Below are positions 36,382 through 60,222 of a stretch of 64,000 nt of DNA, one piece after another. The stretch is from positions 18,941 to 82,940 of the forward strand of contig FR884184.1 of the NCBI GenBank assembly GCA_000435515.1. The letters are read 5' to 3'. The number at the start of each line of letters is the position of its first letter. Positions within the stretch are counted from its first letter, which is position 1. Origin of the DNA: Firmicutes bacterium CAG:582 (GTDB lineage: Bacteria; Bacillota_I; Bacilli_A; RF39; UBA660). Under the pieces are notes generated by a model. That model was not told the origin of the DNA. It saw only the letters and a program-made list of their open reading frames with translations, and made no database searches. Made by a program: the position numbers and the translations under genes.

Positions 36382-36383
36382 AA

Positions 36384-43048: not shown

Positions 43049-43061
43049 AAGGAGGATTTTC

Positions 43062-43622
43062 ATGAACATTAACATTAACGATATTAAAAACGGAATGACA
43101 ATTATTATTGATGGAAAATTATGTTTAATTGAAGAATTCCAACACGTTAAACCTGGTAAGGGTTCAGCATTCATGAAGATGAAATTAAGAAACCTAAGAA
43201 CTGGTGCTTTAGTTGAAGATACTTATAATACTAATATTAAGATCGAAAGAGCTAGAGTAGATAGACTTCCTATGCAATATTTATATTCAATGGGAGATAA
43301 TTATGTTTTTATGAATAATGAAACTTATGAGCAATTAGAAATTCCTGCTGAAAAGTTAAAAGATCAAATTAAATTCTTAAAAGAAGGTCTTGAAATAACT
43401 ATTACGATGTATGAAGGTGAAATTCTTGGAATTACTTTACCTGAAAAAATCGAATTTGAAATAGTTGAAACTAGTGAAGCAGTAAAAGGAAATACAACAA
43501 ATAATGCTCAAAAAGATGCCAAAATAGAAACAGGATATGTTGTTAAAGTTCCATTATTTATTAATCAAGGAGAAAAAATACTTATTTCAACTGCTGATGG
43601 TAAGTATGCTGGAAGAGCTTAG
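43062..43622 (+). CDS. efp: elongation factor P
   Basis: Conserved HVKPGKGSAF loop. 186 aa. Confidence 0.95.
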   Translation: MNININDIKNGMTIIIDGKLCLIEEFQHVKPGKGSAFMKMKLRNLRTGALVEDTYNTNIKIERARVDRLPMQYLYSMGDNYVFMNNETYEQLEIPAEKLKDQIKFLKEGLEITITMYEGEILGITLPEKIEFEIVETSEAVKGNTTNNAQKDAKIETGYVVKVPLFINQGEKILISTADGKYAGRA

Positions 43623-43731
43623 TAATGGCTCTTTTTTTATGAAATAGTTGCTAAAGTATGTGTAAAGTATTGACACATTATTAAAAATTTTGTTATGATT
43701 GATATGTAAAATAGAGAAGGGACTTGACGTA

Positions 43732-44502: not shown

Positions 44503-44853
44503 ACCTACTTTTCTTTTTATTTTGCTCTACTTCCCCTACCTACTTTGTTTTTAAATAGAGGAGAGTGCTTTTTATTATTTTATTTGTTAGTATGAATTAC
44601 ATATAGAGAAGTACTAAGAATATAAAAATAGAAGGTGTTATTAATGATATTTTTCATAATATAAATAATAATAAAATGTATTTATATTAGCAAGGTTAAT
44701 AACTAACAATCTTTTATTTAAAAATATACAAGTTAACATAATATATATTATATGAAGTTATATATTCTTTGAAATATTATTTATAGTTATTCATATTTAA
44801 TTATTAATTCTAACTTATATATTTATTACTTATATTGTTTATTATAAAAAAAA

Positions 44854-44873
44854 CTATATAGTTAACTATATAG
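44854..44873. terminator. perfect 20-bp palindrome ctatatagttaactatatag flanked by A-run and T-run (candidate bidirectional terminator)
   Basis: Sits between convergent genes. AT-only stem, so weak. Confidence 0.3.
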
Positions 44874-44912
44874 TATATTTTTGCTTTTGATTTAAACTAA
44901 AAACGTTTTAAA

Positions 44913-45320
44913 TTATTTTTCACATAATATTTTTTTTGTAATATCATATTCATTATCATATTTGCAAACACTGTAATCATCATCATAAGATTTACAATCA
45001 TATGCATAAGAACATTTATTATCAAGGTCATCATTGATGTAATAATCAATTTCTTCAACTACTCCATTTATAAAATATATTATAATAGGGAAGAGTAAAA
45101 TAAAAATTACTAAGAATATCATTTTAAGCGCTGATATTACAATACCTGCTATAGCAAGCCCACTACCACCCTCCTCTACTCTTTTTGCTTGAATTAAACC
45201 AATGATTGATAATACTAATCCAGCAAAGCTTGAAACAAATGCTAATACAAACCCTAATATACAAATGCTATTAGTTCTCTTTTTCTCCATAACTTCACGT
45301 CCTTTATTATACTTTATCAT
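44913..45320 (-). CDS. small membrane protein with Cys/Tyr/Asp-rich C-terminus, downstream of zupT
   Basis: Two TM helices followed by CSYAYDCKSYDDDYSVCKYDNEYD. Confidence 0.45.
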   Translation of the reverse strand: MIKYNKGREVMEKKRTNSICILGFVLAFVSSFAGLVLSIIGLIQAKRVEEGGSGLAIAGIVISALKMIFLVIFILLFPIIIYFINGVVEEIDYYINDDLDNKCSYAYDCKSYDDDYSVCKYDNEYDITKKILCEK

Positions 45321-45395
45321 ATATTTCTCGCGTAACGCGCGTGATATGCAAATCCCTCGATGATATTATAGCAAATTCATGGTAAAAATCTAGTA

Positions 45396-46136
45396 TTATA
45401 TACCAATTATAATTGATATAACTATATAAACTAAGGATAATAAAACCCCATAGATAAAATATCTGTTTTTATCAAATTTTAATGATTCTTTATATATTGA
45501 ATTTATGCTTAGAGTAATCATTATACCAGCAGTAAATATAAGTATAATAGCAATCATTATATCGTTAATATACTTGTATAGAAATATATATGCAAGTATT
45601 GCTCCTAAGGGTTCAGCTAAACATGATAAAAAAGTAGAAGAAAATGCTTTTTTAAATGATTTTGTTCCTAAATATATTGGTAAAGCTATGCATATTCCTT
45701 CTGGTATATTATGAAACATAATTGCTAAACTTAATTTAATTCCAATTTTTAAGTTTGTCACACCTGATAAAAACGTAACAATTCCTTCTGGAAAATTATG
45801 AACCATCAAAGCTATTAATGATAATATCCCTAGTTTTAAAAGACTCTTCTCCCCTTCCATCTTTTTATCTAAAATATTTATTATTAAATATCCTGCTAAA
45901 AATGAAGTAATAATTATAGTTAAAGCTTTTAAAATAGAAAAATTATTCAAAATGGTAATAATTGAATTTGGTAAAAGATCAATTACTGATATTAAAATCA
46001 TTACAGTTCCTGAAAACGCTAAAACAAGGCTTATATTTGATTTTTTACCAATATTAGGTATAAACACTAGTAAAGAACCTAAAAGTGTTCCAAATGATGC
46101 TAAAAATGATAATAAAATAGGTATTAATATTTTCAT
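45396..46136 (-). CDS. zupT: ZIP-family zinc transporter ZupT
   Basis: Tandem HNFPEG and HNIPEG motifs. About 8 TM helices. 246 aa. Confidence 0.85.
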   Translation of the reverse strand: MKILIPILLSFLASFGTLLGSLLVFIPNIGKKSNISLVLAFSGTVMILISVIDLLPNSIITILNNFSILKALTIIITSFLAGYLIINILDKKMEGEKSLLKLGILSLIALMVHNFPEGIVTFLSGVTNLKIGIKLSLAIMFHNIPEGICIALPIYLGTKSFKKAFSSTFLSCLAEPLGAILAYIFLYKYINDIMIAIILIFTAGIMITLSINSIYKESLKFDKNRYFIYGVLLSLVYIVISIIIGI

Positions 46137-46241
46137 AATATATATTTATTAATATTGATATAAATTTATTCTTAAAATATAGTTTTTTTTTATTATAATA
46201 AAAAATATATTGTACATAATAATTGTAGGAGGTAAGATTTT

Positions 46242-46325
46242 ATGAAAACTAAAAAGACAAATAGAACTTCTAAAAGTAAAAGATCTAATAAATGTCATAG
46301 AGATTCTGAAACTTCAGCAGAATAA
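46242..46325 (+). CDS. tiny basic ORF (27 aa) with very strong SD
   Basis: TAGGAGGTAAG SD 7 nt before the ATG. Product MKTKKTNRTSKSKRSNKCHRDSETSAE. Followed by a terminator. Confidence 0.3.
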   Translation: MKTKKTNRTSKSKRSNKCHRDSETSAE

Positions 46326-46326
46326 C

Positions 46327-46360
46327 AAAAAAACGTTGATGATTAATTCAACGTTTTTTT
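46327..46360. terminator. bidirectional rho-independent terminator (aacgttga / tcaacgtt stem); the stop codon of paralog A lies in the loop
   Basis: Poly-A, aacgttga-tgattaat-tcaacgtt, poly-T. Nearly identical to the hairpin at 53687..53715. Confidence 0.6.
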
Positions 46361-48205
46361 AATATTTTTTTTATCATTCACAGGTTTTGTATTATTAAGC
46401 AAACCATCTATTTTGTTTGGATTTATAGTTAGTCTAGTATCTATTTCGTTTTTTAAACATAAAACGGCTTCAACCAAGTTTTTACACAATTCTTCAGTGC
46501 TCATATTTAGAAATGATGCTTCTTCATCCAAACTATATTCACCACTATAATTTACATCAAATTCTGTTAAAAGAAAATATTCACATTTTTTAGGTAAATG
46601 AGTATTTATAATTAAATCTCGAGTTATAATATTTGCTTTCTTTAAAGAATTCAAGTAACTCTCAACACTTTCTTTTATTTCTTCAAAAGATTTGATATTA
46701 TCAGTGTCTTCCTCAAAAATATTTGTTTCTTCAAGGCAATTTGCTTTTGTTTCTATTTTAGTTTGAATACATTCCTTTATTTTTTCTCCGCTTTGTATGC
46801 TTTTCTTAAATGTGATTATTGCTGTTGTAGTAAAATAACCGTATGCAGTTTTATCACTTCTTAGTATAGTGCTTTTTATATTGAATATGTGTTTTCCGTT
46901 TTCTTCTGTTACATCTATATACTTATCAAAGTGTTTTTGGCCACCTTTTTTTAAATTACTATATAAACTTTCTAAATCTTCTTCGGTAAATCCACGATCT
47001 TTATAATAATCATTTAGTGTTTTATAATTGCTAATAGATATACATTGCGACTTTTTCGTTGCTTTATCGTTTTCTGAACTTTCTTTTATTTCCTCTTTGG
47101 ATTGAGTTTTTTCAACTATTTTTTGTTTTAATTTATCTTTGTTTATTCTTTCTTCTTTTATTAGTTTTCCTATACCTTCATTTTCGTCTTTAGTTAATTT
47201 ATAAATTTTTTCATTCTCTTCACTAGTAAGATGTGAATTATATATTTCATTAAAGTTTTTATCAAACTTTTGCTTTATTAGGTCTTGTTCATCTAACCTT
47301 AAACTTCGATATGCTTCTATAAATTCGTTAACAGTATACCCTTTTTCCTCATAAAATTTTATCAAATTGAAACTTTTAATCGGTATAGTATTTTGTTTTT
47401 CTTTTGCTTCTTCTTTTACAATTTGTTTAGTTGGTACTTCACTTTTCTTAAGTCTTTCAATGACACTGTCGGGTCCAGAAATGATGTTTAAAATAATTTC
47501 AGCATCTTCTTTTGATACGGGAATTAATGGAGATCTAACTTTGTCATATTTTTGGCCATAATACTTATGTAACACTATTCTAATTCTCGTTTCATAGGTT
47601 GAAAGCATTTGAACTATAGCTTCTTTGCGATACCCAAATTTTTCTAAAAACGTTACTAATGACGTTGGTATGCTTATTTTCTTTTGAACTATTTTGTTTG
47701 GATTGTCTTTATTAGTTTTTATAATATTTTCAAATTCATGTAATGCAAACATAAGTTTTTGATATATATCATCTGTTGAAATGTTAAATAATGATGTAAT
47801 AATCGAAAGTTTTTCTTTTTTTCTATTTATTCCAAATGCAGAAGTGAAAATATCACGATATTGTGGGGAAACCTTATTGATTGCACTTTCCAATTCTTGT
47901 GGCGTTAAATCATAAGTCAAACAAAGTTTTCTTGACATCAAAGTTGCGTTGTTGTTGAAAAAACCAATTAAATTTTTATTTTTTGCTTTTAATTTTTCCA
48001 CACATAATACATCCATTTTTACTAATAGTTCTGCGAGATTATATTTATAAATATCGCTTCTTTTAATCGTTCCTTTTACATTTATTCCATCAAAATCTTT
48101 TCCATACTTTTTCTTCATTATGTCATAGACATAATCTTCTTCATATTTTATTAATGTTTTAAAAGTTTCTTCATCCGTTTTAAAATCAATCCAAGCTTTT
48201 TCCAT
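46343..48205 (-). CDS. large paralog A: multi-HTH (sigma-70 region 4-like) repeat protein, novel family
   Basis: N-terminus MEKAWIDFKTDEETFKTLIKYEEDYV...DVLCVEKLK is shared with 53698..56964. Segments LTPQELESAINKVSPQYRDIFTSAFGINRKKEKLSIITSLFNISTDDIYQKLMFALHEF and GEYSLDEEASFLNMSTEELCKNLVEAVLCLKNEI resemble sigma-70 r4 HTH. One YKTLNDYYK..GF.EEDLE module. Confidence 0.7.
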   Translation of the reverse strand: MEKAWIDFKTDEETFKTLIKYEEDYVYDIMKKKYGKDFDGINVKGTIKRSDIYKYNLAELLVKMDVLCVEKLKAKNKNLIGFFNNNATLMSRKLCLTYDLTPQELESAINKVSPQYRDIFTSAFGINRKKEKLSIITSLFNISTDDIYQKLMFALHEFENIIKTNKDNPNKIVQKKISIPTSLVTFLEKFGYRKEAIVQMLSTYETRIRIVLHKYYGQKYDKVRSPLIPVSKEDAEIILNIISGPDSVIERLKKSEVPTKQIVKEEAKEKQNTIPIKSFNLIKFYEEKGYTVNEFIEAYRSLRLDEQDLIKQKFDKNFNEIYNSHLTSEENEKIYKLTKDENEGIGKLIKEERINKDKLKQKIVEKTQSKEEIKESSENDKATKKSQCISISNYKTLNDYYKDRGFTEEDLESLYSNLKKGGQKHFDKYIDVTEENGKHIFNIKSTILRSDKTAYGYFTTTAIITFKKSIQSGEKIKECIQTKIETKANCLEETNIFEEDTDNIKSFEEIKESVESYLNSLKKANIITRDLIINTHLPKKCEYFLLTEFDVNYSGEYSLDEEASFLNMSTEELCKNLVEAVLCLKNEIDTRLTINPNKIDGLLNNTKPVNDKKNIKKTLN

Positions 48206-48223
48206 GATTCACCTCTATAATAT

Positions 48224-50518
48224 CTATACTTTATTTATTTTTTTCTTTTGGTTGTTTTTATCTTTTGTATATATTTCAAATGCTTTGTCGAATAATGATT
48301 TATATAATAATAACTCAGTTATTCCATCAAATGAGTGATTTGTTAATAAACCAGATAATAAGATATAGTAGTTAATACATTTACCAGCAAATTTTTGACA
48401 AATACTGGCTTTTACTATTTTATAATCTGTTGTACTCTTTTTTATCTTCATTTTTGTATCATTTAACATTGAATAGTATATATTGTCAGCATTTACAATG
48501 TTTGATTTTTCGCTTTTATAGTGAATAAGAAGCGTTATAAAATAATCTAAGTAATGACGTATTTCAACTAGTTTTTCTTTATTCAAGCGATAACTTGCTT
48601 TTAATTCAAATGTATCAATATCAAAATATGAAGTTAGGTCAAAGTCTTTTCCATATTTATTGATAATATGTAAAAATTCTATAAATTCCGTTTCTGTATA
48701 TCCAAGTGATAAAAAGAAATTCTTTAAGTTGGAAATATTATTAACATAGGTACAATCGATTATTAAGTTGGTAAACACCGCTATAGCATCATCAGTTGTA
48801 CAGTTTTTTTGTCGTGCTAAAGATATTATTTTATCAATCGCTTGCTCGTCTAAGTCATTGATTATAGTTAATGATGCAACAGGACTACAACCTAAATCTA
48901 TAAGCACATTTCTTACAGATTGGTATTTTTCTTTCTTGTTCATATCAATCAATTCATTATAGTTAAGTGCTAAATATATAATTTTATCAAATAAAGATGT
49001 TAATTCTTCTTCGTTAATTATAACATTATCGCGTAAATATGCTTGATTTGTATAATATTTATTTAGTATACTTTTTTCTTCTGAATTTAATAATAAAATA
49101 GCCTTCTTAACATAATTTGCAGGTATTCCACGTATTCCTAGATGAACATAGTAATTTGTATAAACATTTTCAGTAACTGAACTATCATATTGAGGAAGAA
49201 TACTATCATTTAAAATGTTTTCCGCAAAAGCATTATCTGGATTTATTAATGAAGTCGTTGCTGATTTTTGGATTCCTATATTTTGACTATATGTTTCTTT
49301 TAGCATAAGGTTAGAGTCATAAAATTTTGAAATCATATCAAGTGATTCTATAGAAAATTGTTTGAAAGCTTTTTCAACTATTTCTCTTTCATATCCTAAC
49401 TTTTGATAAAAACGATATATATCTATTATCATTCCTGAAGAAGAACAATTTAAAAGATTGCAGCTTGCTATTTTGTCTTTAATATTTTTTTGAATGCCTT
49501 TATTTGGATTAAATAATAAATTATATATTGAATTAGCCTCACCACTTCTAACTATTTTACCAAATATAAATTTTTTAGGAACTTTCAATGTATAATCTGA
49601 ATAAAAATAGGTATCAATTATTTCTTTATGTATTGTAGATAATTCTTCTAAAACTTCTGATACTATTTTCTTTGAATATCCCATACTAATATAATAGTCT
49701 TTTAAATTAAATTCATTAATTGGACCATAATATTTTGGTATTTTTATTGACTTTATTCTTTCTTCTATAATGTACATAACGTTTTTATCCTTAGAAATGA
49801 ACACTGTTTTTAGGTTTTGGATATCTTCCTGCAACAATTTTACCTCAGTGTTTTTTTCTTTGTTGAAACGTTTACCATATAGTTTTTTTAAGGTACTTTT
49901 TACGTCATCGTTATATTCTTCTATTGCTAGCTCTATATCATCATGATAATATCCTTTTTTTTCAAAATAATCAAAGAAAAAGTTTGGTAAAACAAAAACA
50001 TTTTTCTTAGGTTTCTCTTCAACGTTTTTTTTGACTGAATTTAAATATAAAAAACGCATGTTAGTTCTAACGAGTCTGTTTAAATCGTCGTAGTTAATAT
50101 TTAATGCATCAAGCACTTCATCAACATTTAAATTTTCACCAGTCAAGTTAAATAATAGTTCAATAGCTCGTCTTGATTTTTGTGGTATTATATTTAGATT
50201 AGTTACCATTGATAAGGAATCTATATTATAAGCAAATTTTATACGTTCTATAATATTATTTTCACTTAAAAAAGTTTCAAACTCTTCTTTTGAAGCTAGT
50301 TTATGTAAACATAAAACATCTATAGTTACTATCTCTTGGATGATTGGAAAAATTTGTTTTTCATAATCAGAAAGAGTTATTTTTTTATTTCTAGTGAAGA
50401 AATTAGAAAATTGATTTTCTAATTGAATCTTTACTAAATCAGTTTCACATTCATATATTTTTTTTAATTCTTCATCAGTTGCATTAAATATTTTATTTAT
50501 TTTTTTTATTCTTTCCAT
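48224..50518 (-). CDS. large paralog B: related multi-HTH repeat protein
   Basis: Shares the DVLCLHKL N-terminal motif and HTH-like segments (IPQKSRRAIELLFNLTGENLNVDEVLDALNINYDDLNRLVRTNMRFL) and repeated F..YY...GY....L modules. Starts 44 nt downstream of the xerD stop, on the same strand. Confidence 0.65.
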   Translation of the reverse strand: MERIKKINKIFNATDEELKKIYECETDLVKIQLENQFSNFFTRNKKITLSDYEKQIFPIIQEIVTIDVLCLHKLASKEEFETFLSENNIIERIKFAYNIDSLSMVTNLNIIPQKSRRAIELLFNLTGENLNVDEVLDALNINYDDLNRLVRTNMRFLYLNSVKKNVEEKPKKNVFVLPNFFFDYFEKKGYYHDDIELAIEEYNDDVKSTLKKLYGKRFNKEKNTEVKLLQEDIQNLKTVFISKDKNVMYIIEERIKSIKIPKYYGPINEFNLKDYYISMGYSKKIVSEVLEELSTIHKEIIDTYFYSDYTLKVPKKFIFGKIVRSGEANSIYNLLFNPNKGIQKNIKDKIASCNLLNCSSSGMIIDIYRFYQKLGYEREIVEKAFKQFSIESLDMISKFYDSNLMLKETYSQNIGIQKSATTSLINPDNAFAENILNDSILPQYDSSVTENVYTNYYVHLGIRGIPANYVKKAILLLNSEEKSILNKYYTNQAYLRDNVIINEEELTSLFDKIIYLALNYNELIDMNKKEKYQSVRNVLIDLGCSPVASLTIINDLDEQAIDKIISLARQKNCTTDDAIAVFTNLIIDCTYVNNISNLKNFFLSLGYTETEFIEFLHIINKYGKDFDLTSYFDIDTFELKASYRLNKEKLVEIRHYLDYFITLLIHYKSEKSNIVNADNIYYSMLNDTKMKIKKSTTDYKIVKASICQKFAGKCINYYILLSGLLTNHSFDGITELLLYKSLFDKAFEIYTKDKNNQKKKINKV

Positions 50519-50561
50519 AATTTATACTACCCCGCCTTTGATTTGTTATTATAGCATACTT

Positions 50562-51446
50562 TTAATCCCTTGGAAAGTATTTCTTATATTCGTTATGTAA
50601 CGCTTCTTTAGTTAGATGCGTATATATTTGTGTTGTTGAAATGTCAGAGTGACCAAGAAGTTCTTGTATAACTCTTAAGTCTGCTCCATTTTCTAGTAAA
50701 TGGGTTGCGAATGTATGTCTAAGAGTATGTGGCCCGATTGTTTTTTTAATATTTTTTAATGCAGCATAATTTTTAATCATCTTAAATATTCCTTGTCTTG
50801 TTAACATACGACCATGATTGTTTAAAAAAATATAGTTGTTTATCTCATTTTTTACAAGTTCAGGTCGGTAATTATTAATATATTCTTTTAAATATTTTAT
50901 TGCATAATCATTTACTGGAACAATTCTTTCTTTTGAACCTTTTCCCATAACCCTTATAATACATTCGTCATAGTCGATATTTTTAAACTCTAGAGATATA
51001 ACTTCACTTATTCTTAAGCCAGTTGCATACATGAGTTCGAGAATAGCTTTGTTTCTTGAAGAAAAAGCGTCAGTTACTTCAATATCTAAAAGTTTATTTA
51101 CTTCATCAATTGTTAAATATGTTGGTAAATGAATACCTAATTTAGGAGATTTTATTCCATCTGTTGGATTATTAGAAATACGTCCTTGTTTTAAAAAATA
51201 TGAATAAAACGTTTTTAAACTAGAAATGTTATGGCTTACAGTAGTTGGAGCTAAATTACTTAATGTTCGAATGTATTTTTCTATATCTTTAGAAGTTATT
51301 TTAAGTAAATCCTTGCTTTTGTAGTATTCTTCAAATTTATTTAAATCATTTTCGTATGAATTAATCGTGTTTTTTGAGTAGTTTGCTTCCACCTCTAGGT
51401 ATGATAAAAAGTCACTTATATAGATGTTATTCATATGTTTCACCAT
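50562..51446 (-). CDS. xerD: tyrosine site-specific recombinase XerD/XerC family
   Basis: N-terminal SAM-like core-binding domain. Catalytic R..HTLRHTFATHLLENGADLRVIQELLGHSDISTTQIYTHL. Confidence 0.8.
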   Translation of the reverse strand: MVKHMNNIYISDFLSYLEVEANYSKNTINSYENDLNKFEEYYKSKDLLKITSKDIEKYIRTLSNLAPTTVSHNISSLKTFYSYFLKQGRISNNPTDGIKSPKLGIHLPTYLTIDEVNKLLDIEVTDAFSSRNKAILELMYATGLRISEVISLEFKNIDYDECIIRVMGKGSKERIVPVNDYAIKYLKEYINNYRPELVKNEINNYIFLNNHGRMLTRQGIFKMIKNYAALKNIKKTIGPHTLRHTFATHLLENGADLRVIQELLGHSDISTTQIYTHLTKEALHNEYKKYFPRD

Positions 51447-51521
51447 ACTTATGATATCAAATTTTTGAAAAATTTACAAAATAGATAATGGCTTATGTTA
51501 TAATTGTTTATGGTGATATAT

Positions 51522-52715
51522 ATGGAACTTCTTGCTAATACTTTAAGACCAAGTTGTTTAGACGATGTTGTTGGTCAAAGACATTTGGTTGGAGACAATA
51601 AGATAATAAGAAATTTGGTTAATAATAAACATATATTTTCTATGATACTTTATGGTCCTCCGGGAACTGGTAAAACAACGCTTGCATGCGCGATTGTTAA
51701 TGAGCTTGGAGTTAAATATCGTATGCTTAATGCTGTTATTAATAATAAAAGTGATTTTGATGTTGCTATTGAAGAAGCAAAAATGTATGGTTCTCTTGTT
51801 TTGATTGTTGATGAAATTCATCGAATGAATAAGGATAAACAGGATATACTTCTTCCCTATTTAGAAAATGGTCTTATTACTTTGATTGGTCTTACAACAT
51901 CAAATCCTTACTTTAAAATAAATCCTGCTATACGTAGTCGTGTTCAAATTTTCGAACTTAAGCCTGTTAGTAAAGAAGATATTGTAATTTGTTTAAAAAG
52001 AGCTTGTACCAAATTAGATAAGATAAATGTAAATGATGAAGCACTTGAATATATTGCTTCTTTATCTAATGGAGATGTTCGAGCAAGCCTTAGTTTGTTA
52101 GAGGTTGCTTACTATTCAACTAAAGATGGTAATATTACAATTGATTTAATTCGAAATATTAACCCTAAAGTTATTTTGGATGGAGATCAAGATGGAGATG
52201 CCCATTATGATTTAATAAGTGCATTACAAAAAAGTATTCGTGGAAGTGATGTTGATGCAGCTCTTTACTATTTAGGAAGGTTAATCGTAATTGGCGATTT
52301 AGATATAATATATAGAAGATTGAGCGTTATAGCCTATGAGGATATTGGCCTTGCAAATCCTGGTATTGGACCTAAGGTTATGGCAGCAATTGAAGCTGCT
52401 AATCTTGTTGGTTTACCGGAGGCACGAATCCCTTTAGGAACTATAGTTACGGAAATGGCTCTATCACCAAAATCTAATTCAGCACATGTGGCTTTAGATA
52501 CCGCAATAAATGATATTTCTAATGGCGTAAATGGTCGAGTTCCAACATGGTTAAAAACTAACTCTAAGGATTATAAATATCCACATGATTATAAAAATTC
52601 ATGGGTTGATCAACAATACTTACCAACTGAAATAAAAAATAAAAAGTACTTTGTACCTAAAAATAATAAATATGAAATGAATTTAGTTAATATACATAGG
52701 GAGATGAAAAAATGA
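51522..52715 (+). CDS. rarA: replication-associated recombination protein A (AAA+ ATPase RarA/MgsA)
   Basis: LRPSCLDDVVGQRHL, GPPGTGKTTLA, DEIHRMNK, and MgsA C-terminal helical domain. Confidence 0.9.
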   Translation: MELLANTLRPSCLDDVVGQRHLVGDNKIIRNLVNNKHIFSMILYGPPGTGKTTLACAIVNELGVKYRMLNAVINNKSDFDVAIEEAKMYGSLVLIVDEIHRMNKDKQDILLPYLENGLITLIGLTTSNPYFKINPAIRSRVQIFELKPVSKEDIVICLKRACTKLDKINVNDEALEYIASLSNGDVRASLSLLEVAYYSTKDGNITIDLIRNINPKVILDGDQDGDAHYDLISALQKSIRGSDVDAALYYLGRLIVIGDLDIIYRRLSVIAYEDIGLANPGIGPKVMAAIEAANLVGLPEARIPLGTIVTEMALSPKSNSAHVALDTAINDISNGVNGRVPTWLKTNSKDYKYPHDYKNSWVDQQYLPTEIKNKKYFVPKNNKYEMNLVNIHREMKK

Positions 52716-53686
52716 ATATAGCAATAATTGGAACAGGAGTTTATGGTATTGCCATGGCTACAGCTCTTGCTCAAAATAAAAATAATAGTATAAAAATGTG
52801 GTCAGAAAGTGATGACTCGTTAAATAGAATAGAAAACTCGAGAAAGTGTTTTAAAGATTTAGGTGGTATTGCTTTACCGGAGGAAATAGCTTTTTCTACT
52901 TCTTATGAAGAAGTTATGAAAGATGCTGATTTAGTTTTTATAATGGTTGCAGCAAAATATGTTTCAAGTGTATGCGAAAATATGAAAAAATATATTACTA
53001 AGAATATGCACTTTGTTATTGGTTCTAAAGGAATTGAACAAAAGACATGTTTGTTTATTGATGAAATATTTCAAAAAAATATACGCACGAATAAACTTGG
53101 TGTAATATCCGGACCATCATTTGCGATTGATATAGGTTTCTTAGAACCTATTGGTTTATCTTTAGCTACTAAAAATAAAAGCACTTTAAAATTGGTTCGT
53201 GAAGCATATGAACACACTAATATAAAGCTAAGAGATACAACTGATATAGTTGGTATTGAAATATGTGGGTCTATAAAAAATGTTATCGCGATTGCTGCTG
53301 GAATATTGGACGGTCTAGGTTATAAAGAATCCACTAGAAGTTTCCTTATAACTGAATCATTACATGATATTAAAGAACTTATCAATAATCTTGGAGGAAA
53401 TAAAAAAACTATTCTATCATTTGCTGGTGTTGGAGATTTATTATTAACAGCTACAAGTGAAAAATCGCGTAATTATACTTATGGCGTTTTACTTGGCAAG
53501 AATGATATGAAAGAAGCTTTGAATTATATAAATGAAACCACTGTAGAAGGTTATTATACTCTTAATAGTATATACTCCCTACTTCATAAGAAAAAAGTTA
53601 AAATGCCTGTAATTGATATTATTTATGATATTGTAATAAATGGTAATGATCCTAAAATTTTGGTAGATTTTCTTATGAAAAAATAA
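52712..53686 (+). CDS. gpsA: NAD(P)H-dependent glycerol-3-phosphate dehydrogenase
   Basis: N-terminal Rossmann fold IAIIGTGVYGIAMA, GSKGIE...ISGPSFA, C-terminal GpsA domain. Overlaps the rarA stop. Confidence 0.85.
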   Translation: MNIAIIGTGVYGIAMATALAQNKNNSIKMWSESDDSLNRIENSRKCFKDLGGIALPEEIAFSTSYEEVMKDADLVFIMVAAKYVSSVCENMKKYITKNMHFVIGSKGIEQKTCLFIDEIFQKNIRTNKLGVISGPSFAIDIGFLEPIGLSLATKNKSTLKLVREAYEHTNIKLRDTTDIVGIEICGSIKNVIAIAAGILDGLGYKESTRSFLITESLHDIKELINNLGGNKKTILSFAGVGDLLLTATSEKSRNYTYGVLLGKNDMKEALNYINETTVEGYYTLNSIYSLLHKKKVKMPVIDIIYDIVINGNDPKILVDFLMKK

Positions 53687-53715
53687 AAACGTTGAATTTA
53701 ACTCAACGTTTTTTT
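53687..53715. terminator. bidirectional terminator with the same aacgttga/tcaacgtt stem; the stop codon of paralog C lies in the loop
   Basis: aaaacgttga-atttaac-tcaacgttttttt. Serves gpsA (+) and paralog C (-). Confidence 0.6.
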
Positions 53716-56700
53716 ATTCTCTTTTTTTTCAGCTAATGCTGCAGTATCAGTAAAATGATTCATTTTGCTAATTATATTTTCTTTTACAAGTTTAATCGCA
53801 TCCACTAAAATTTTACATAGTTCCATACTATCCATATTGAAATGTTTGGCTTCCTCGTCTAAACTCATAGAACCATCTTTGTTTATAACAAATTCATTTA
53901 AAAGAAAGTATTCATATCTTTTAGGAAGATTAAGATTTAAAATTAAATCTTTTGTGATTATATGACTTGATTTTATTTCGGATAAATACTCATGAATATA
54001 CTCTTTTATGTTATCAAATGAAGGTCCTTCAGCTATAACTAAATTATTTTGTGTTTCTTGTTTTGTTTGTTTCGTTTTGTGTTTCAAATAAATTAGTAGA
54101 TTACTAGTAAAATACGCATATGCTGGTAAATCGTGCCTGTACTTAAGCGTGCTTTTTATTTCAAATATATATTTTTCTTCATTGACTTTTGTTATTGTTG
54201 TAAATTCTTCAAAATACTTTTTGCCTTGATTTGCTGATTTATACGCATTTGTTAACTCTTCATCAGTAATACCATATTTTTTATAATAGTCATTTAAAGT
54301 TTTACAATAATCAAGTTTTCCTTTATTACTTTTACTATTTTCTTTCTCTATTTCTTTTTTTACAAAATTTGTTATAGTATTATTCAATTTTAAGCCATCT
54401 ACACCCTTGCCACTTCTGATTCTATGTATACATATTGATTCTGGAATATCTTGCATAAGATAATGAAAATCTTTCTTATTTAAGTTCGCTATAGATTTTT
54501 TAAAAGTAAATATATGTTTATTTTCAGCTTCTTCAACAATATTCATCGTTTTATAAAAGTAATCATGGCGAAATGGTATAGATGCTAAAGATAAATATAA
54601 ATCTTCCATGTCTTCATCATCAAAACCTAACGATTTATAATAATCATTTAAAGTTTTATAATCATTAATGATTTCCATTCTGCTTGTCTTTGGAGAATGA
54701 AAATCAATATATCTTTTAATGTTTTCTGTTAGATTAAGATTTTCTATTGATTTATTATTTTTAACTCTGCATCTATATAATTTTACAAGTATAGTTTTAT
54801 TATAATATTTGTAATTTCTTTTATCATTTGTATCTATTCTTCTAACGAATGTAAAAATATGTTTCTTATCTTTTGTTTCAGTAACATTTATAGTTTCAGA
54901 AAATATATCTTTTTCTCGTTTAGTTAAGTTTTTATAGACTTCTTCTAAATCTTCATCATCAAATCCTATTGCTTTGATAAAACCGTTAAGTGTTTTATAT
55001 TTTTTTATTGATATTGTAGGTGTTGTTTTAACTCTTTCACCAGCTTTTTTTATAGAAGGAGGCAATTTTATATTATCTACACCTTTGCCCTTTTTAATTC
55101 GAAACTTACATAATGATATTGGAATGTCTTTTGTTAAATAATCATGGTCTTTTTGACATAGATCAGCGGCTGGTTCTTTAAAAATAAACATATGTTTTTC
55201 CTCTTCAATTATATTAAAAAGTCTATAAAAGCAATCGTACCGTATTGGATTTTCGTCTAAAGATGAATATAAATTTTCCATGTCTTCATCATCAAATCCT
55301 AAAGCGTTATAATAGCCATTTAAATGTATATAATTTTCTATTTTAGGAGTATTGTTATCTCTTATAGAATTAGTTCTTAAATGATTTTTAACGTTCTTGG
55401 ATACTTCAATATTATCAACTGATTTGTTATTCCTTAATCTACCTCTATATAAACGTATAATAACACTTTGAGTATAGTATTGATAATTTAGTTGGTCATG
55501 ATTTTGAGTTATTCTTTTTGTAAAAGTGAATGTATGTTTCTTTTCTGCATCTTCCGTAACAATAATACATTTATTAAATCTTTCTTTTTCTTTTGCTGAT
55601 AGTTCGTTGTACATATTTTCTAGGTCTTCATCATCAAAACCTAGTGATTTACAGTATTCATTAAACGTATCAAAATTCTTTATTCCTTTTTCATTGTTTG
55701 GCTTATTTTCAGTTAAATCTTTAGATGGAGAAAAATTAACGTCTTTTTTTTCAACAGAATCAAATGTATTACTTTTTTGAGGAAGTGTGATGTCTTTTGA
55801 CTTAGCTGGTGTTTTCTTAACTTTTATAGGTTGAATTACTTCTTCATTTTTCTTTTCTGAAATTTCTTTTTCTACTTCTTGTGGTTGTTCTACTATTTTA
55901 ATTATTTTAGGCATAGTTTTATTTGTCGTTTCAGCTAAAATTTTACCTATTCCGCTTCTTTCACTTCTAGTAAGATCAAATATCATAGCTTTTTCTTTAT
56001 AGGATAGTTTGGCATCTTTTATTTCATTAAATTCGTTGTCATACTTTTTCTTTATTAAGGCACATTGTCTTTCGCTTAAAGAACGATATGCATTTAAAAA
56101 TTCTAATGCAGAATATCCTTTATCTTTATAGAATTTTATTAAATTGAATGTTTTTTCTTTTTTTAGTCTGTTATTTCTTTTAATTTTTTCAATTGCTTGT
56201 AATTTCTTTTCTTGCAGTTTTTTTATTTGAAAATCTATGTTATTATCTCCAATTAAAACAGAATTAATGATTGCTTCATCACCTTCGGCAACGGGAATTA
56301 ACGGAGATTTTGCTGAGGAATAATTAAATCCATAATATTTTTGTAAAGTATATTTTGTTTTATCATCATAAAGATTCAAAGCCTCGATTAACTTAGATCT
56401 TGGATATCCTCTTTTTTCTAGATCTAACATCAGCATCGAAGGTATTTTGTTTGTAACTTTTTTAACGCTTTTCATTATATTAACTTCACTTTTCAGACGT
56501 CTAATGGTTAGTAATAAGCTTTTATATATATCGTCAGTAGACACTTCGAATAATTTTTCTATATCCTTAAAGCTCATTTTTCTTCGATTTATACCATAAG
56601 AATATATAAAAATTTTTCTTTGCTCCTCTGGTAATCTAATAATTATGTTTTCTAACTTATCTATTTGAAGGTCATAGGCAGTACATATCTTCCTTTGCAT

Positions 56701-56964
56701 TAAACCTTCTTCTTTTTTAAAAAAGGAGTCTACATTAATGTGTTTGTTTTTTAAATTTTTTATGCATAGTACATCTATTTCAATTAAAAGAGATGCTAAA
56801 GTAAATATTTCGTTTTCCTTTTTAGTGAGTTTAACTTCATTTTTGTTATCATAATTTATTCCATATTTCTTTTGCACTATAATTTTTACAAAGTCTTCTT
56901 CGTATTTCATTATTAATTTAAAAGTTTCTTCGTCTATTTTAAAATTTGTCCACACATTTTCCAT
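53698..56964 (-). CDS. large paralog C (1088 aa): multi-HTH repeat protein with five tandem modules of about 113 aa
   Basis: N-terminus MENVWTNFKIDEETFKLIMKYEEDFV...DVLCIKNLK is paralogous to A. LPEEQRKIFIYSYGINRRKMSFKDIEKLFEVSTDDIYKSLLLTIRRLK is r4-like. C-terminal GSMSLDEEAKHFNMDSMELCKILVDAIKLVKENI parallels the A C-terminus. Ends ...KKTLS (A ends ...KKTLN). Confidence 0.7.
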   Translation of the reverse strand: MENVWTNFKIDEETFKLIMKYEEDFVKIIVQKKYGINYDNKNEVKLTKKENEIFTLASLLIEIDVLCIKNLKNKHINVDSFFKKEEGLMQRKICTAYDLQIDKLENIIIRLPEEQRKIFIYSYGINRRKMSFKDIEKLFEVSTDDIYKSLLLTIRRLKSEVNIMKSVKKVTNKIPSMLMLDLEKRGYPRSKLIEALNLYDDKTKYTLQKYYGFNYSSAKSPLIPVAEGDEAIINSVLIGDNNIDFQIKKLQEKKLQAIEKIKRNNRLKKEKTFNLIKFYKDKGYSALEFLNAYRSLSERQCALIKKKYDNEFNEIKDAKLSYKEKAMIFDLTRSERSGIGKILAETTNKTMPKIIKIVEQPQEVEKEISEKKNEEVIQPIKVKKTPAKSKDITLPQKSNTFDSVEKKDVNFSPSKDLTENKPNNEKGIKNFDTFNEYCKSLGFDDEDLENMYNELSAKEKERFNKCIIVTEDAEKKHTFTFTKRITQNHDQLNYQYYTQSVIIRLYRGRLRNNKSVDNIEVSKNVKNHLRTNSIRDNNTPKIENYIHLNGYYNALGFDDEDMENLYSSLDENPIRYDCFYRLFNIIEEEKHMFIFKEPAADLCQKDHDYLTKDIPISLCKFRIKKGKGVDNIKLPPSIKKAGERVKTTPTISIKKYKTLNGFIKAIGFDDEDLEEVYKNLTKREKDIFSETINVTETKDKKHIFTFVRRIDTNDKRNYKYYNKTILVKLYRCRVKNNKSIENLNLTENIKRYIDFHSPKTSRMEIINDYKTLNDYYKSLGFDDEDMEDLYLSLASIPFRHDYFYKTMNIVEEAENKHIFTFKKSIANLNKKDFHYLMQDIPESICIHRIRSGKGVDGLKLNNTITNFVKKEIEKENSKSNKGKLDYCKTLNDYYKKYGITDEELTNAYKSANQGKKYFEEFTTITKVNEEKYIFEIKSTLKYRHDLPAYAYFTSNLLIYLKHKTKQTKQETQNNLVIAEGPSFDNIKEYIHEYLSEIKSSHIITKDLILNLNLPKRYEYFLLNEFVINKDGSMSLDEEAKHFNMDSMELCKILVDAIKLVKENIISKMNHFTDTAALAEKKENKKTLS
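53965..55677 (-). repeat. array of five tandem coding modules of about 339 bp (type A, B, A, B, A') inside paralog C
   Basis: Modules begin (F/Y).T(F/L)N.Y(Y/C)K.LGFDDED(L/M)E.(L/M)Y. A-type modules contain KKHIFTF...Y(R/K)..L..LYR.R..NNKS. B-type modules contain RYD.FY....I.EE...H.F.FK...A.L..KD..YL..DIP.S.C..RI..GKGVD. Confidence 0.6.
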
Positions 56965-57075
56965 AATCTACCTCATCACGTTTTTAGTTATATTATACTC
57001 TTGAATATGTTTTTTGAAAAGCATTTTACTTTTTAATTCAACATAAAAAGATAACTGTTTTAGCTATCTTTAAGA

Positions 57076-57750
57076 TTATTTGTTTTTAATTATGTCATTA
57101 AATATAAATGACACACATAAAAGACCAGCAACGCTTGGAACTAAATTGGCTGTTCCTAACATATTTATTTGTTTTGGAACTTCTGTTGAAGATACCACAT
57201 ATATTTTTTTATTGATATGAGCTTTTCTTACTTTATTTCTTAATAATCTTGCAATTGGATCGTTGTTGGTTTTATCTAAAGTTGTAATTTCTAATTTTGT
57301 AGGATCTATTTTTTTTGCTGTTCCCATAGAAGATATTAGCTTATATGAATAATGTATACTATTTTCCATTAAAGCAAATTTTACGTCTAATGTATCACAG
57401 GCATCTATTATGTAATCAAAGTTTTGGTTTAAAAGATTTCTTAGATTTTCTTTATTTAGCTTTTCATTAATCGTTTGAATATTGATGTTTGGATTTATTA
57501 ATAAAGCTCTTTTTTTTGCTTCATCTACTTTATACTTTCCAATGTTAGTTGAATCAGTCATTAGTTGTCTATTCAAGTTGGATAAATCGATGATATCAAA
57601 ATCAACTATAGTTATATCAAAAAATCCATTTCTTATAAGTGCTTCTAGGGCGTAACTTCCTACTCCGCCTACTCCAATAAGTAAAATTTTTTTTCTTTCA
57701 ATTTCTTTTAGTTTTTCTTCACCAATAAGACCAATTAGTCTTTCAAACAT
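57076..57750 (-). CDS. tcdA: ThiF/MoeB-family E1-like enzyme, probable tRNA threonylcarbamoyladenosine dehydratase
   Basis: ILLIGVGGVGSYALEALIRNG Rossmann motif, DFDIIDLSNLNRQ. 224 aa. Confidence 0.7.
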   Translation of the reverse strand: MFERLIGLIGEEKLKEIERKKILLIGVGGVGSYALEALIRNGFFDITIVDFDIIDLSNLNRQLMTDSTNIGKYKVDEAKKRALLINPNINIQTINEKLNKENLRNLLNQNFDYIIDACDTLDVKFALMENSIHYSYKLISSMGTAKKIDPTKLEITTLDKTNNDPIARLLRNKVRKAHINKKIYVVSSTEVPKQINMLGTANLVPSVAGLLCVSFIFNDIIKNK

Positions 57751-57781
57751 AATATCACCTTTCTTGCAAATAAAAAGCCTA

Positions 57782-57940
57782 AGAAAAGCCAGTGTGATAA
57801 AAGCCCGCTCTCACGAGGTGGGCATCACATGACTCGAATTAGGATCCCTAGTCAATGACTAGGTCTTCAACACAACAAGCCAATTAGATTCCCAATAATC
57901 ACAATTAGTCGGTTTTATGTAATAGCCTTCCTTAGGTAAT
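57782..57940 (-). ncRNA. candidate structured small RNA of about 160 nt, GC-rich island with closing stem and terminal hairpin (6S-like?)
   Basis: Minus-strand 5' CCUAAGGAAGGC pairs with 3' GCUUUUCUUAGG, followed by a U5 tail. Internal UGUGAU/AUCACA and UGGG/CCCA pairings. Apical hairpin CCUAGUC-AUU-GACUAGG. GC content is far above the flanks. Lies between two minus-strand genes. Confidence 0.4.
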
Positions 57941-57978
57941 TTAACTATATCATATATCTAGTACTTAGTAAATATTAT

Positions 57979-58359
57979 TTACATATATTTACATGCTTGT
58001 GTTAGCAATTTACCCATTTTATTTTCTAGTTTTTCATTTATTTCATCGACTATTTCAACGGTTTCTTGGTCAAGTTTAAAATATTCATCTATGGTAATGT
58101 AAATGTCTTCACTTTCATGAAGCATATAGTATGTAATCATATATTCTAACAATAAAATGCTTATTTCATATGGTAAATATGCAGATAAAGTCATTATTTT
58201 TTGATGTACTCCATTTTGATAGAAAACAGCCATTCTAGGGACGTTTTTATTGCCATTTCTAGTTATAGTAAAACCATTTTCTCTTATAATATCAAATATA
58301 CCTCCTATATTGTTTTTACAAGCCAAACTAATTTTTTCGATAATTTCTTCTTTTTCCAT
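57979..58359 (-). CDS. hypothetical protein (126 aa) downstream of the HerA-like ATPase
   Basis: ORF with GGTGAG SD. No recognisable family. Same strand as the ATPase, 53 nt downstream. Confidence 0.45.
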   Translation of the reverse strand: MEKEEIIEKISLACKNNIGGIFDIIRENGFTITRNGNKNVPRMAVFYQNGVHQKIMTLSAYLPYEISILLLEYMITYYMLHESEDIYITIDEYFKLDQETVEIVDEINEKLENKMGKLLTQACKYM

Positions 58360-58412
58360 AATTTTCTCACCTTTGCTGTATTATAATAAATTCAAAAGAA
58401 AAAAGCAATATT

Positions 58413-60179
58413 TTATTGCTTTTGAACGGGTTTCCAACGGAATAATACATCACAGTTAGAAGAATATGGTGCCGGATTTGGCATATCCATTTTTACGATT
58501 ACAGGTATTTTAAATGCTGAACCAAAGGCCACCATAGTACCACTTTGCAAACTTGTAAGTTTTTCAATAATATCTCCACTTATATTTGGAAGCATTTTAT
58601 TAATGTAATCTAAGTCTCTAGGATGAGTCATTTTTAAAATACAGAAATTACTTGTTTGGGCAATAACAGTTTCTGATATTTCAACTGGACGTTGACTTAC
58701 TAAGTCAAGCATAACTCCGTATTTTCTTCCTTCTTTAGCTATACGTTCAAAGATATTATATCCTAAAAGAAAGTGGTCATTATCGTTAACTACATATCTA
58801 TGAGCCTCTTCTATAAACAAATGAAATGGAATAGCAGCACGTACTCTTCTCTTCTTAGCAAAATCAAAAATCATTTTAGAAAATATTTTTACAATAGTTT
58901 TAGCTAAGTTATCATCAACATCTTCAAGGTTTATATTAATTATTTGACTACGTCTATTATTATGTATTATTAAGGATGAAATATAGTTGTCTATTGTTAT
59001 ATATTCTTTGAATGAGAAAAACTTTCTATTAGATGAGTTATTCAATGAATGTAATCTAACTTGCATAATAACAGCATTGTCTTGCATAATTCTATTTCCT
59101 AAGAAACCATCTCCGATTAATGTAAATGATAAGGCTCTTTCAAGATCATCTAAAGTGTAAAAAGCATCTGTTGGTACATCTATTTTGCTTTCTAATTCAT
59201 CATCTATAAATTTAAGTAAATATTCATTTATAAGTACTGATTCTCCAAACTCACCATTACGGTCTATTCCAAAACATTCACTGAATTTACGTGTATAACC
59301 AATTCCTTGAATATCTGTATTAACATTAAACTCTGGAGTTGAACAATCATTTATTATTGTGAATATATCATTTTTTTTACCTGCAGCATTTTGATTTGAA
59401 AATAACACTGACATTATAGCTTTCGCTATTAAATGATTCTTTAATTTTTTTGTTTCTTCGTCATCTTTAGAAAATAATTTTGCAAGTTTTAACATTCGTT
59501 CTACTATTGTATATTGATGATGATTATCTGCTTGTAAAAGTAAACAAATGTCATCAATGGTTAGTAAAAATACAGGAATATTTAATTGAACATCATCCGG
59601 ATCTATTGGGTTTGATGTTATAAATTTATATTGATAATTTGGATTTATTTGATTTAGCACTTTGAAAGCATTTTTATATTCACCATATGCATCAAATATA
59701 AATAAATTAGCGTTGTATGATAAAAATTGTTTATTTAAAAAGATATTTTGGACAATTCTTGCAACTGAACAACTTTTACCAGAACCGGTATTACCAAATA
59801 TAGCAGCATGGTTTGAAAAGAACTGATTAATGTCAATGTAGACATTTTTTTCTGGATAAATTGCCGAATGACCAAGATATAAACTTTTTTCGTCATCTTT
59901 TCCAAGTATAATATTTAATTCATCATCATTTATAACTCGCACCTTACTATCAAGTGTAGGTTTTTTTATAGTACCAGCAATGAAACGATTTTCAACAAAT
60001 TGACCAAGCAAGTCGATGTGTACAGTTTCAGTATCAACTTTCTTAACTTCACCTAATAACTTATCTTTGTCATTTTCAAAAACAACATGCAAATTCATTA
60101 AATTTGGTACAACCATGTTACTTTTATTGATATCTACAACGGCTGTAATATCATCTATATATCGTATTTTTCCAAACAT
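58413..60179 (-). CDS. HerA/FtsK-superfamily (DUF87-type) ATPase with N-terminal HAS-barrel
   Basis: Walker A AIFGNTGSGKSCS. About 320-aa helical insert. Walker B / sensor HLFIEEAHRYV and EGRKYGVMLDLVSQRP are typical of HerA/DUF87. N-terminal beta-barrel-like region. Confidence 0.7.
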   Translation of the reverse strand: MFGKIRYIDDITAVVDINKSNMVVPNLMNLHVVFENDKDKLLGEVKKVDTETVHIDLLGQFVENRFIAGTIKKPTLDSKVRVINDDELNIILGKDDEKSLYLGHSAIYPEKNVYIDINQFFSNHAAIFGNTGSGKSCSVARIVQNIFLNKQFLSYNANLFIFDAYGEYKNAFKVLNQINPNYQYKFITSNPIDPDDVQLNIPVFLLTIDDICLLLQADNHHQYTIVERMLKLAKLFSKDDEETKKLKNHLIAKAIMSVLFSNQNAAGKKNDIFTIINDCSTPEFNVNTDIQGIGYTRKFSECFGIDRNGEFGESVLINEYLLKFIDDELESKIDVPTDAFYTLDDLERALSFTLIGDGFLGNRIMQDNAVIMQVRLHSLNNSSNRKFFSFKEYITIDNYISSLIIHNNRRSQIININLEDVDDNLAKTIVKIFSKMIFDFAKKRRVRAAIPFHLFIEEAHRYVVNDNDHFLLGYNIFERIAKEGRKYGVMLDLVSQRPVEISETVIAQTSNFCILKMTHPRDLDYINKMLPNISGDIIEKLTSLQSGTMVAFGSAFKIPVIVKMDMPNPAPYSSNCDVLFRWKPVQKQ

Positions 60180-60222
60180 TTATAACCAACCTCTTATTCT
60201 ATTATCAATTATATCATAAAAT

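Follow-up and report, generated by a model that had tools for sequence, protein, structure and literature searches.

Tandem units derived from sigma-70 region 4 build an unnamed, clade-restricted family of large proteins near xerD in Bacilli

Region 4 of the sigma-70 family (sigma-4) is a well-studied domain, known almost only as the single copy that ends a sigma factor or as the related output domain of LuxR/GerE-type proteins. In a 64,000-nucleotide (nt) stretch of Firmicutes bacterium CAG:582 (GenBank assembly GCA_000435515.1, contig FR884184.1, positions 18,941 to 82,940; hereafter the window), three minus-strand open reading frames (ORFs), here called genes A, B and C, have predicted products that profile and structural comparisons show to be beads-on-a-string proteins of tandem sigma-4-derived units. 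Use of this well-known domain as a repeat block in giant non-sigma proteins appears to be undescribed, and the same appears to hold for the N- and C-terminal heads of the family, its linkage to xerD and its evolutionary behaviour. Literature searches returned nothing relevant on tandem sigma-4 proteins.

The A/B/C proteins differ from the described users of this fold in several respects. Compared with sigma-70-family proteins they are without sigma-2 and sigma-3 domains, the family carries from 6 to more than 20 tandem, diverged copies of region 4, Asp or Glu has taken the place of the -35-reading arginines, and direct Pfam scores lie below threshold. The LuxR/GerE helix-turn-helix (HTH) and YlxM/UPF0122 score below sigma-4 for the A/B/C units. 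These are single-domain DNA-binding or signal recognition particle-associated proteins, unlike the arrays described here, and we know of no tandem arrays of either type. PhyR, an anti-anti-sigma factor of Alphaproteobacteria, joins a single sigma-2/sigma-4-like domain to a receiver; unlike A/B/C it has no repeats, and it belongs to an unrelated lineage with no sequence relationship beyond the fold.

The nearest likeness is found in three proteins, P0119, P0122 and P0123, which are the weakest significant matches of the family profile and are tied to A/B/C through profiles only (E 3e-6 to 6e-4 in 1.84 billion proteins). With 6-8 units per array, they clear the Pfam Sigma70_r4 threshold at 8e-12, 1e-25 and 7e-32. 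As in A/B/C, the same extended unit is repeated head-to-tail with a period of 80-95 amino acids (aa), the hosts are low-GC gut or environmental Bacilli, and the proteins have neither a name nor a literature. In contrast to A/B/C, all their units are intact HTHs that pass Pfam thresholds, they are without the U0 head, the acidic C-terminal unit and the KKTL/terminator end described below, and they lie in a different genomic context, away from xerD. An example of this type is seen in another Bacilli genome (GCA_045119835.1; locus L008, 8001..12496), which encodes two paralogs of intact tandem Sigma70_r4 units, of 669 and 569 aa; their genes flank a YlbD_coat gene, precede ylbF and adjoin rpsB-tsf-pyrH-frr. 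These are a second unnamed class of sigma-4 array proteins.

Direct library scans did not reveal the domain. Genes A (46343..48205, 620 aa), B (48224..50518, 764 aa) and C (53698..56964, 1088 aa) gave nothing above threshold against Pfam, NCBIfam, PHROGs and PADLOC. The best sigma-related Pfam scores were Sigma70_r4 in B (E 0.042; 13.8 bits, cut-off 24.1) and Sigma70_r4_2 in C (E 0.1; 12.7 bits, cut-off 25.7), and A matched neither model, which leaves all three proteins below the gathering thresholds of Sigma70_r4 (PF04545) and Sigma70_r4_2 (PF08281). A sigma-factor model of NCBIfam was found below threshold in C (E 0.04), as were UBA-like, TM1266-like and two PHROG matches of unknown function among the three proteins. 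Profiles of the family itself recovered the domain. Profile A4, made from the first 185 aa of 26 diverse members and searched against Protein Data Bank (PDB) sequences, matched region 4 of SigA in ten PDB entries (E 8.8e-6, 1.8e-5, 8.1e-5, on to ~3e-3), with S. aureus, B. subtilis and C. difficile SigA represented and all matches at profile positions 97-160. AlphaFold2 (AF2) models of A and B, based on shallow alignments (14 and 8 sequences; predicted template modelling (pTM) scores 0.33 and 0.44), fold the individual units confidently, and Foldseek matched these models to isolated sigma-4 domains at prob 0.96-0.99 and TM ~0.7-0.77. Region 4 is therefore present with both its fold and its sequence signature. 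Membership in Pfam Sigma70_r4 or Sigma70_r4_2 is arguable only through profile-profile, transitive and structural evidence.

A sequence-only reading of this stretch had proposed sigma-70 region-4-like units in the three proteins and had named insignificant HMM searches as a result that would count against them. The direct scans are indeed insignificant; family profiles and structure prediction nevertheless bear the proposal out. Its statement that the proteins are unlike bona fide sigma factors also holds, as neither the library scans nor profile A4 gave any sigma-2 signal in A/B/C. Sigma-2 (regions 2.1-2.4) is the part of a sigma factor that contacts core RNA polymerase and recognises or melts the -10 element. 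The predicted proteins have neither sigma-2 nor sigma-3 and cannot, therefore, act as sigma factors.

The organisation of the arrays was defined by profile-profile comparison (hhalign) of the A and B modules with the repeat unit of P0119, P0122 and P0123, for which reversed and column-shuffled controls all gave E >= 0.008. This unit consists, in order, of a two-helix extension (FYxxF–xYSxEEVDxAL), region 4.1 (LxxxxxxILxxYYGL) and the HTH of region 4.2. The LNDYYK..GF.EEDLE..Y..L motifs that recur in A/B/C are the extension and 4.1 part of the unit. A UBA-like or HeH reading of these helices (LNDYYK..GF..EDLE) was rejected, as only faint Pfam matches spoke for it and the extended sigma-4 unit fits better. 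Units U1, M1 and M2 of A and M1-M4 of B aligned to the repeat unit at 72-99% (E 2e-16 to 3e-5). A head-to-tail array of the extended unit is thus present in A and B, with most of its HTHs degenerate. Complete sigma-4 units occupy the N-proximal and C-terminal positions in A and C and the N-proximal position only in B, and in the units between them the HTH has been lost or remodelled. Several HTH segments per protein had been claimed earlier; a complete HTH exists only in two units of A and C and one of B. That account was at the same time too modest, since most of the central modules are also diverged extended sigma-4 copies.

Gene A encodes six sigma-4-derived units with Lys/Glu-rich, low-confidence linkers between them (all on the minus strand). 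U0 (aa 1-95; 47921..48205) is the most conserved N-terminal helical unit, MEKAW.DFKTDEETFK...KKKYGKDFDG...DVLC. In hhalign, its resemblance to module 1 is 46-68% (68%, E 5e-5, against module 1 of B, with controls at E >= 0.008), and it is probably a strongly diverged copy of the sigma-4 module. U1 (aa 97-168; 47702..47917) is a complete sigma-70 region 4, comprising 4.1 and the HTH of 4.2; it aligns to the repeat unit at 98.7% (E 1.8e-16) and scores 31 bits in hmmsearch with that unit. M1 (aa 178-256; 47438..47674; 91.9%, E 7e-7) and M2 (aa 276-352; 47150..47380; 86.4%, E 5e-6) are extended sigma-4-derived modules with a degenerate HTH. M3 (aa 390-475; 46781..47038) is of the YKTLNDYYK..GF.EEDLE type and is the unit multiplied in C; AF2 gives it three short helices, a beta-hairpin in place of the HTH, and a long helix. 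Its tie to sigma-4 is transitive only, through M2 of B (86%, E 5e-6), which itself aligns to the sigma-4 unit at 91%. The C-terminal unit (aa 505-600; 46406..46693) is sigma-4-like with an HTH, has an isoelectric point (pI) of 4.6, aligns to U1 at 94% (E 1.2e-7) and forms a second conservation hot-spot. An EF-hand reading of its motif EF.VN.DG..SLDEEA was discarded: the sole support was secretagogin at E 0.09, and the motif is not conserved in distant members. The EF-hand-like loop corresponds by eye to the U1 loop between region 4.1 and the HTH.

In B, U0 precedes a single complete sigma-4 unit; behind it come sigma-4-derived modules, of which at least four are recognisable, and a helical tail that is basic. 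The complete unit, U1 (aa 99-160; 50039..50224, minus strand; pI 4.7), is sigma-70 region-4-like and aligns in profile A4. Foldseek with the whole B model returned 6onu_H (prob 0.98, TM 0.73) with no query range. M1-M4 (aa 176-520; 48959..49993, minus strand) align to the repeat unit at 72-91% (E 1e-6 to 3e-5), M6 aligns weakly (44%, E 2e-4), and M5 and the tail are at control level. A and B are collinear, M1 of A pairing with M1 of B at 98% (E 2e-13) and M2 with M2 at 97% (E 1e-10). The repeats of giant relatives match M3 of B at 97%.

Gene C is a monocistronic duplicate of A with five M3-type modules. Its U1 (about aa 97-165; 56470..56676, minus strand; LPEEQRKIFIYSYGINRRKMSFKDIEKLFEVSTDDIYKSLLLTIRRLK) is a complete sigma-4 unit contained in profile A4. 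The repeat unit scores 19.4 bits there in hmmsearch (aa 109-161), and weak direct matches to PRK12513 and Sigma70_r4_2 are also found. The M3-type modules (aa 428-975; 54040..55683, minus strand) follow the pattern a-b-a'-b'-c, in which the module at 428 is 45% identical to that at 653 and the module at 542 is 55% identical to that at 766. They are the site of a copy-number polymorphism. Tandem Repeats Finder detected no DNA-level tandem repeat in C, and the modules are therefore old. The protein ends in a sigma-4-like unit (53755..54012, minus strand; ...LPKRYEYFLLNEFVINKDGSMSLDEEAKHFNMDSMELCKILVDAIKLVKENI) with 41% identity to the C-terminus of A.

The paralogy of A, B and C, claimed earlier, is upheld by BLASTP. 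A and C share 37% identity over their first ~460 aa (E 3e-85) and 41% over the C-terminal ~225 aa (E 8e-37). B aligns with the first ~285-350 aa of C and A, at 24% identity to C over ~280 aa (E 4e-13) and 21% to A (E 2e-11). The N-terminal motif described for all three fits A and C well and B loosely, where DVLC is kept and the Trp is missing. At the related locus L010 (related loci and lineages carry L numbers here) C is not present, and a ThiF gene abuts gpsA directly. Because C is absent from this outgroup locus, the comparison supports C as a later, lineage-specific duplicate of A with the terminator copied along, in line with the earlier proposal that the duplication took the 3' untranslated region with it. 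B-A is the ancestral gene pair.

The positions, strand and lengths of the three ORFs given by the sequence-only reading are correct, as is its placing of xerD, rarA and gpsA between them. Library matches confirmed xerD (50562..51446, minus strand; TIGR02225, E 1e-104, above the trusted cut-off), rarA (MgsA_C, 1e-49) and gpsA among the genes between B and C. The gap between B and A is 18 nt, as read before, and that between xerD and B is 43 nt rather than 44. G+C of the window is ~27%, and composition counts agree with the description of Lys/Glu/Asn-rich proteins (K 11-14%, E 7.5-10.5%, N 7.6-9.3%), Ile also being abundant. Neither a signal peptide nor a hydrophobic or transmembrane stretch was found in A/B/C, and the proteins are therefore predicted to be cytoplasmic.

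The family is very small. In word-indexed searches, 5.8 billion clusters yielded 45 relatives of A and 48 of B, all of them nameless and free of Pfam domains. When 1.84 billion cluster representatives were searched exhaustively in HMMER with an A/C-type profile, only 35 proteins reached E <= 1e-3. A genome-contig search with A alone found nothing; the same search with the alignment found only two metagenome-assembled genomes, both listed as uncultured Bacilli bacterium from Hadza gut metagenomes. These searches show the A/B/C family to be very small, clade-restricted and unnamed, and they agree with the earlier view of a lineage-specific family of undescribed function.

Six or more related lineages have kept genes of the A/B/C type. 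The order xerD–B–A–ZIP is found in every lineage with enough flanking sequence (the window, L001/L002, L003/L004, L010 and L015), and each of the cut contigs L007, L011, L012 and L014 is consistent with it. xerD lies directly upstream of B in every lineage examined; in L011 the upstream gene is cut and has no Pfam annotation. A mobile-element or phage origin was rejected on the strength of this stable core synteny together with tblastn searches of phage and plasmid collections, which contained no A/B/C relative.

Length is far less stable than position. A-type orthologs at the same locus measure 484, 620, 735, 775, 1041, 1398 and 1736 aa, the overall range starting at 462 aa, and B is far steadier than A or C at 706-819 aa between lineages. 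C alleles of 864, 974 and 1083-1088 aa differ by in-register loss of whole modules: within one species, P0041 is without aa 555-778 (two modules) and P0036 without aa 441-554 (one), and elsewhere both are 97-98% identical to the window copy. Invariant columns of the A/C-type alignment (members 40-95% identical to A) are confined to aa 1-148, M3 and aa 517-575. Compared with L001, neighbouring proteins are 85-100% identical with dN/dS of 0.00-0.10, whereas identity falls to 54, 53 and 47% for B, A and C, which have dN/dS of 0.33-0.34 and dS of ~1, as in the neighbours. A/B/C therefore evolve 3-30 times faster than their neighbours in dN/dS at equal dS. The low identity was not put down to allelic replacement or horizontal transfer, a reading rejected because dS is the same as in the neighbours. 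Conservation in at least six lineages at dN/dS ~0.33 places A/B/C under purifying selection, a case of fast but constrained evolution in situ.

The 3' ends of the A- and C-type genes are shaped by their terminators. As the sequence-only reading noted, A and C end in KKTLN and KKTLS, with stop codons in the loops of near-identical hairpins AAAAACGTTGA...TCAACGTTTTT, and folding statistics confirm this (dG -14.2 and -15.8 kcal/mol, z -6.8 and -5.9 for A and C; 0/200 shuffles equally stable). These features lie far outside what chance would produce. The hairpin of A is a bidirectional intrinsic terminator (46326..46361) whose 5' arm encodes the KKTLN tail. That of C, at 53685..53713, is also bidirectional, is common to C and the convergent gpsA, and encodes KKTLS in its 5' arm. 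The stop codon of each A- and C-type gene sits within the terminator loop, the 5' side of the stem being supplied by the final four or five codons. The hairpin is kept in L001, L003, L007 and L010. In L007 compensatory stem changes preserve it and the peptide becomes KKVLD; in L010 it persists four codons past an earlier stop, outside the ORF. Selection therefore acts on the RNA terminator, with the tail as a by-product, and a KK(T/A/V)L tail functioning as a peptide is ruled out by the same two loci. The A- and C-type 3' ends are thus a clear case of RNA structure dictating a conserved C-terminal peptide.

An unannotated 27-codon ORF (MKTKKTNRTSKSKRSNKCHRDSETSAE; 46242..46325, plus strand) lies between gene A and the ZIP transporter gene. 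Preceded by a strong ribosome-binding site (GTAGGAGGTAA), it converges on A, with which it shares the bidirectional terminator. Peptide and binding site are kept in five lineages, L001, L003, L007 and L010 among them, and most copies carry a C-x5/6-C-[HK] pattern. Because the ORF adjoins a ZIP zinc-transporter gene, its product may be a small metal-related or regulatory protein.

At the 5' side of B, a promoter-like site with an extended -10 element (TTTCCA-17-TGcTATAAT; 50548..50576, minus strand) overlaps the last xerD codons. The TGnTATAAT in the xerD-B gap is invariant across six lineages in which the flanking intergenic bases vary, and B-A is thus predicted to have its own extended -10 promoter in this gap. 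No terminator lies between xerD and B. The xerD-B-A operon suggested earlier is thus compatible with the absence of a terminator, with the addition that B-A also has an invariant promoter of its own. C is preceded by a promoter-like site (TTTTCA-17-TATAAT; 56992..57020, minus strand) and a GAGGT ribosome-binding site, both kept in L001 and L006.

The complete sigma-4 units do not have the charge expected of a classical DNA reader. Their pI is 4.6-6.5 (6.5 for U1 of A, with the C-terminal unit of A and U1 of B at the low values given above). In the HMM alignment the family recognition helix reads idedeiykl (STDDIYQKL in A) opposite VTRERIRQI in SigA, so that the basic -35-contacting residues of SigA (TRERIRQ) are not kept and Asp or Glu is found instead. 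Because the DNA-contacting arginines have been replaced by acidic residues, classical DNA binding by A/B/C is doubtful. The earlier description of the family as nucleic-acid-binding finds no support in acidic recognition helices and complete units of this pI.

On balance, we consider A/B/C somewhat more probably than otherwise to be multivalent protein-binding scaffolds or tethers. This is suggested by conserved ends, a free number of middle modules, and complete units that are acidic and without -35-reading arginines. The terminal sigma-4-like heads would dock onto a partner protein and the variable middle array would set reach or valency. By analogy with what sigma-4 binds, candidate partners would be the beta-flap tip of RNA polymerase, a sigma-4-binding regulator or a sibling protein, and the role could lie in transcription or in chromosome-associated organisation.

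Several points weigh against this interpretation. The proposed role is inferred only from architecture and charge, and no particular partner is supported. U0 and M3, together with M5, M6 and the tail of B, are not tied to sigma-4 above control level, and M3 of A compared with sigma-4 directly is itself at control level (E 0.002). The C-terminal unit of A has no direct sequence match to solved sigma factors in the PDB. Given the shallow AF2 alignments and low pTM, the geometry between units is not fixed by the models. A dN/dS of 0.33 could mean weak constraint rather than an adaptive role, and the Lys-rich linkers and basic tails (pI 9.5-10; C net +28 overall) could permit non-specific binding of DNA or RNA.

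This last point leads to the strongest alternative, which takes up the view of the sequence-only reading: A/B/C would be multi-HTH nucleic-acid binders whose units or basic linkers bind DNA, the array bridging or coating it as a nucleoid-associated or architectural factor, perhaps in cooperation with XerD in chromosome dimer resolution or segregation. The sigma-4 and LuxR folds are classically DNA-binding, the linkers and tails carry the basic charge just described, and the adjacency to xerD is strictly conserved, at a place that scpA-scpB, which encode SMC partners, often occupy after xerD in Lactobacillales. SMC_ScpA and SMC_ScpB domains are not among the Pfam or NCBIfam matches of A/B/C. 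However, the complete HTH units are neutral or acidic, with Asp or Glu where SigA has its -35-contacting Arg, the HTH is lost in most modules, the separate B-A promoter means that the xerD linkage may be merely positional, and rapid divergence with module loss is unusual for core nucleoid proteins. We regard this explanation as unlikely, but as one to be taken seriously.

Improbable in our view, though still worth stating, is a role as sigma-4 decoys. The arrays would mimic region 4 of the housekeeping sigma factor and soak up the proteins that target it, whether anti-sigma proteins from phages (such as AsiA or G1 ORF67) or anti-sigma or activator proteins of the host, so that transcription is protected or tuned and an arms race drives fast evolution. 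The best solved sequence relatives of U1 are region 4 of primary SigA, the fold is kept while the DNA-reading residues are lost, dN/dS is 3-30 times that of the neighbours at equal dS, module copy number varies within one species, and PhyR is a precedent for a sigma-like domain serving as a protein decoy. Yet A/B/C have no PADLOC match and no phage or plasmid relatives, their locus has a stable place in the core genome and is no defence island, dN/dS averages less than 1 and there is no known partner. We give the same low credence to a related proposal, that A/B/C are sigma-4 mimic arrays acting on the transcription machinery as non-sigma proteins, with conserved acidic heads that would bind the beta-flap tip or proteins targeting region 4 of the housekeeping sigma factor, for example phage anti-sigma proteins or regulators of the host.

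It is very unlikely that the genes are weakly constrained, repeat-prone filler ORFs kept for their 3' terminators and 5' promoter. High dN/dS and free module gain and loss would fit such a reading, as would selection acting visibly on the terminator hairpin and not on the KKTL tail. It is opposed by ORFs of 460-1700 codons that stay open in every lineage at a dN/dS of ~0.33 and not ~1, by invariant residues at both ends across the A/C-type alignment, by the confident AF2 unit folds, and by the conserved ribosome-binding site and promoter of each gene. The least credible reading takes A/B/C for alternative sigma factors that have diverged strongly and carry long C-terminal extensions, their N-terminal ~166 aa corresponding to a sigma-2 plus sigma-4 pair of the extracytoplasmic function (ECF) kind: full-length sigma-28, sigma-S and ECF sigma factors are among the Foldseek matches, as is PhyR, over 110-300 aligned columns, and the size of the N-terminal domain is near that of an ECF sigma factor, but a sigma-2 signal is missing.

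Other features of the window and the related loci were also recorded. A HerA/DUF87 ATPase gene (58413..60179, minus strand) matches PADLOC HerA PDLC04102 (E 4e-107) and, below cut-off, the NCBIfam anti-phage-associated HerA (4e-54). It is followed by a gene for a 126-aa protein with no family match (57979..58359, minus strand). The synteny of the two genes is kept in relatives, HerA being 98% identical in L001, and they may be either a defence pair or a housekeeping HerA with its neighbour. At 43699..44502 (plus strand) a 267-aa protein has an N-terminal HTH-like segment and weak PHROG transcriptional-regulator matches only, with no Pfam family; a counterpart of 256/257 aa lies between the elongation factor P (EF-P) and DUF4190 genes in all related loci. 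Reverse-transcriptase genes near the DUF4190 gene are found in L003 and L010 and not in the window. In L003 (12274..13944) an RVT_1 domain and a trypsin-like domain are joined in 556 aa between the ZIP and DUF4190 genes; in L010 (16362..17423) RVT_1 stands alone in 353 aa just upstream of the DUF4190 gene, with no ZIP gene called there. These genes could be a retron, a group II intron or a defence-associated reverse transcriptase. Rfam and tRNA scans of the whole window (1..64000) found none at threshold, and for a low-GC Firmicute region with ribosomal-protein and EF-P genes the window is unusually bare of annotated RNA elements.

In this family sigma-4 has become a repeat building block for proteins of 460 to ~1,900 aa, with classical DNA reading probably given up. 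The results also illustrate that fast-evolving repeat proteins can escape direct Pfam annotation, the domain being recovered by family profiles and structure prediction. Should the arrays prove to be sigma-4 mimics, they would be decoy or tether regulators of a new class, with valency multiplied by an expandable array; their roughly ten-fold higher rate of evolution and the module polymorphism among strains would then be explained by an arms race. Heads that bind RNA polymerase or sigma-4-binding proteins would mean that uncultured gut Bacilli control or protect transcription in a new way; heads that bind DNA or each other would make A/B/C a new kind of chromosome-associated scaffold beside xerD.

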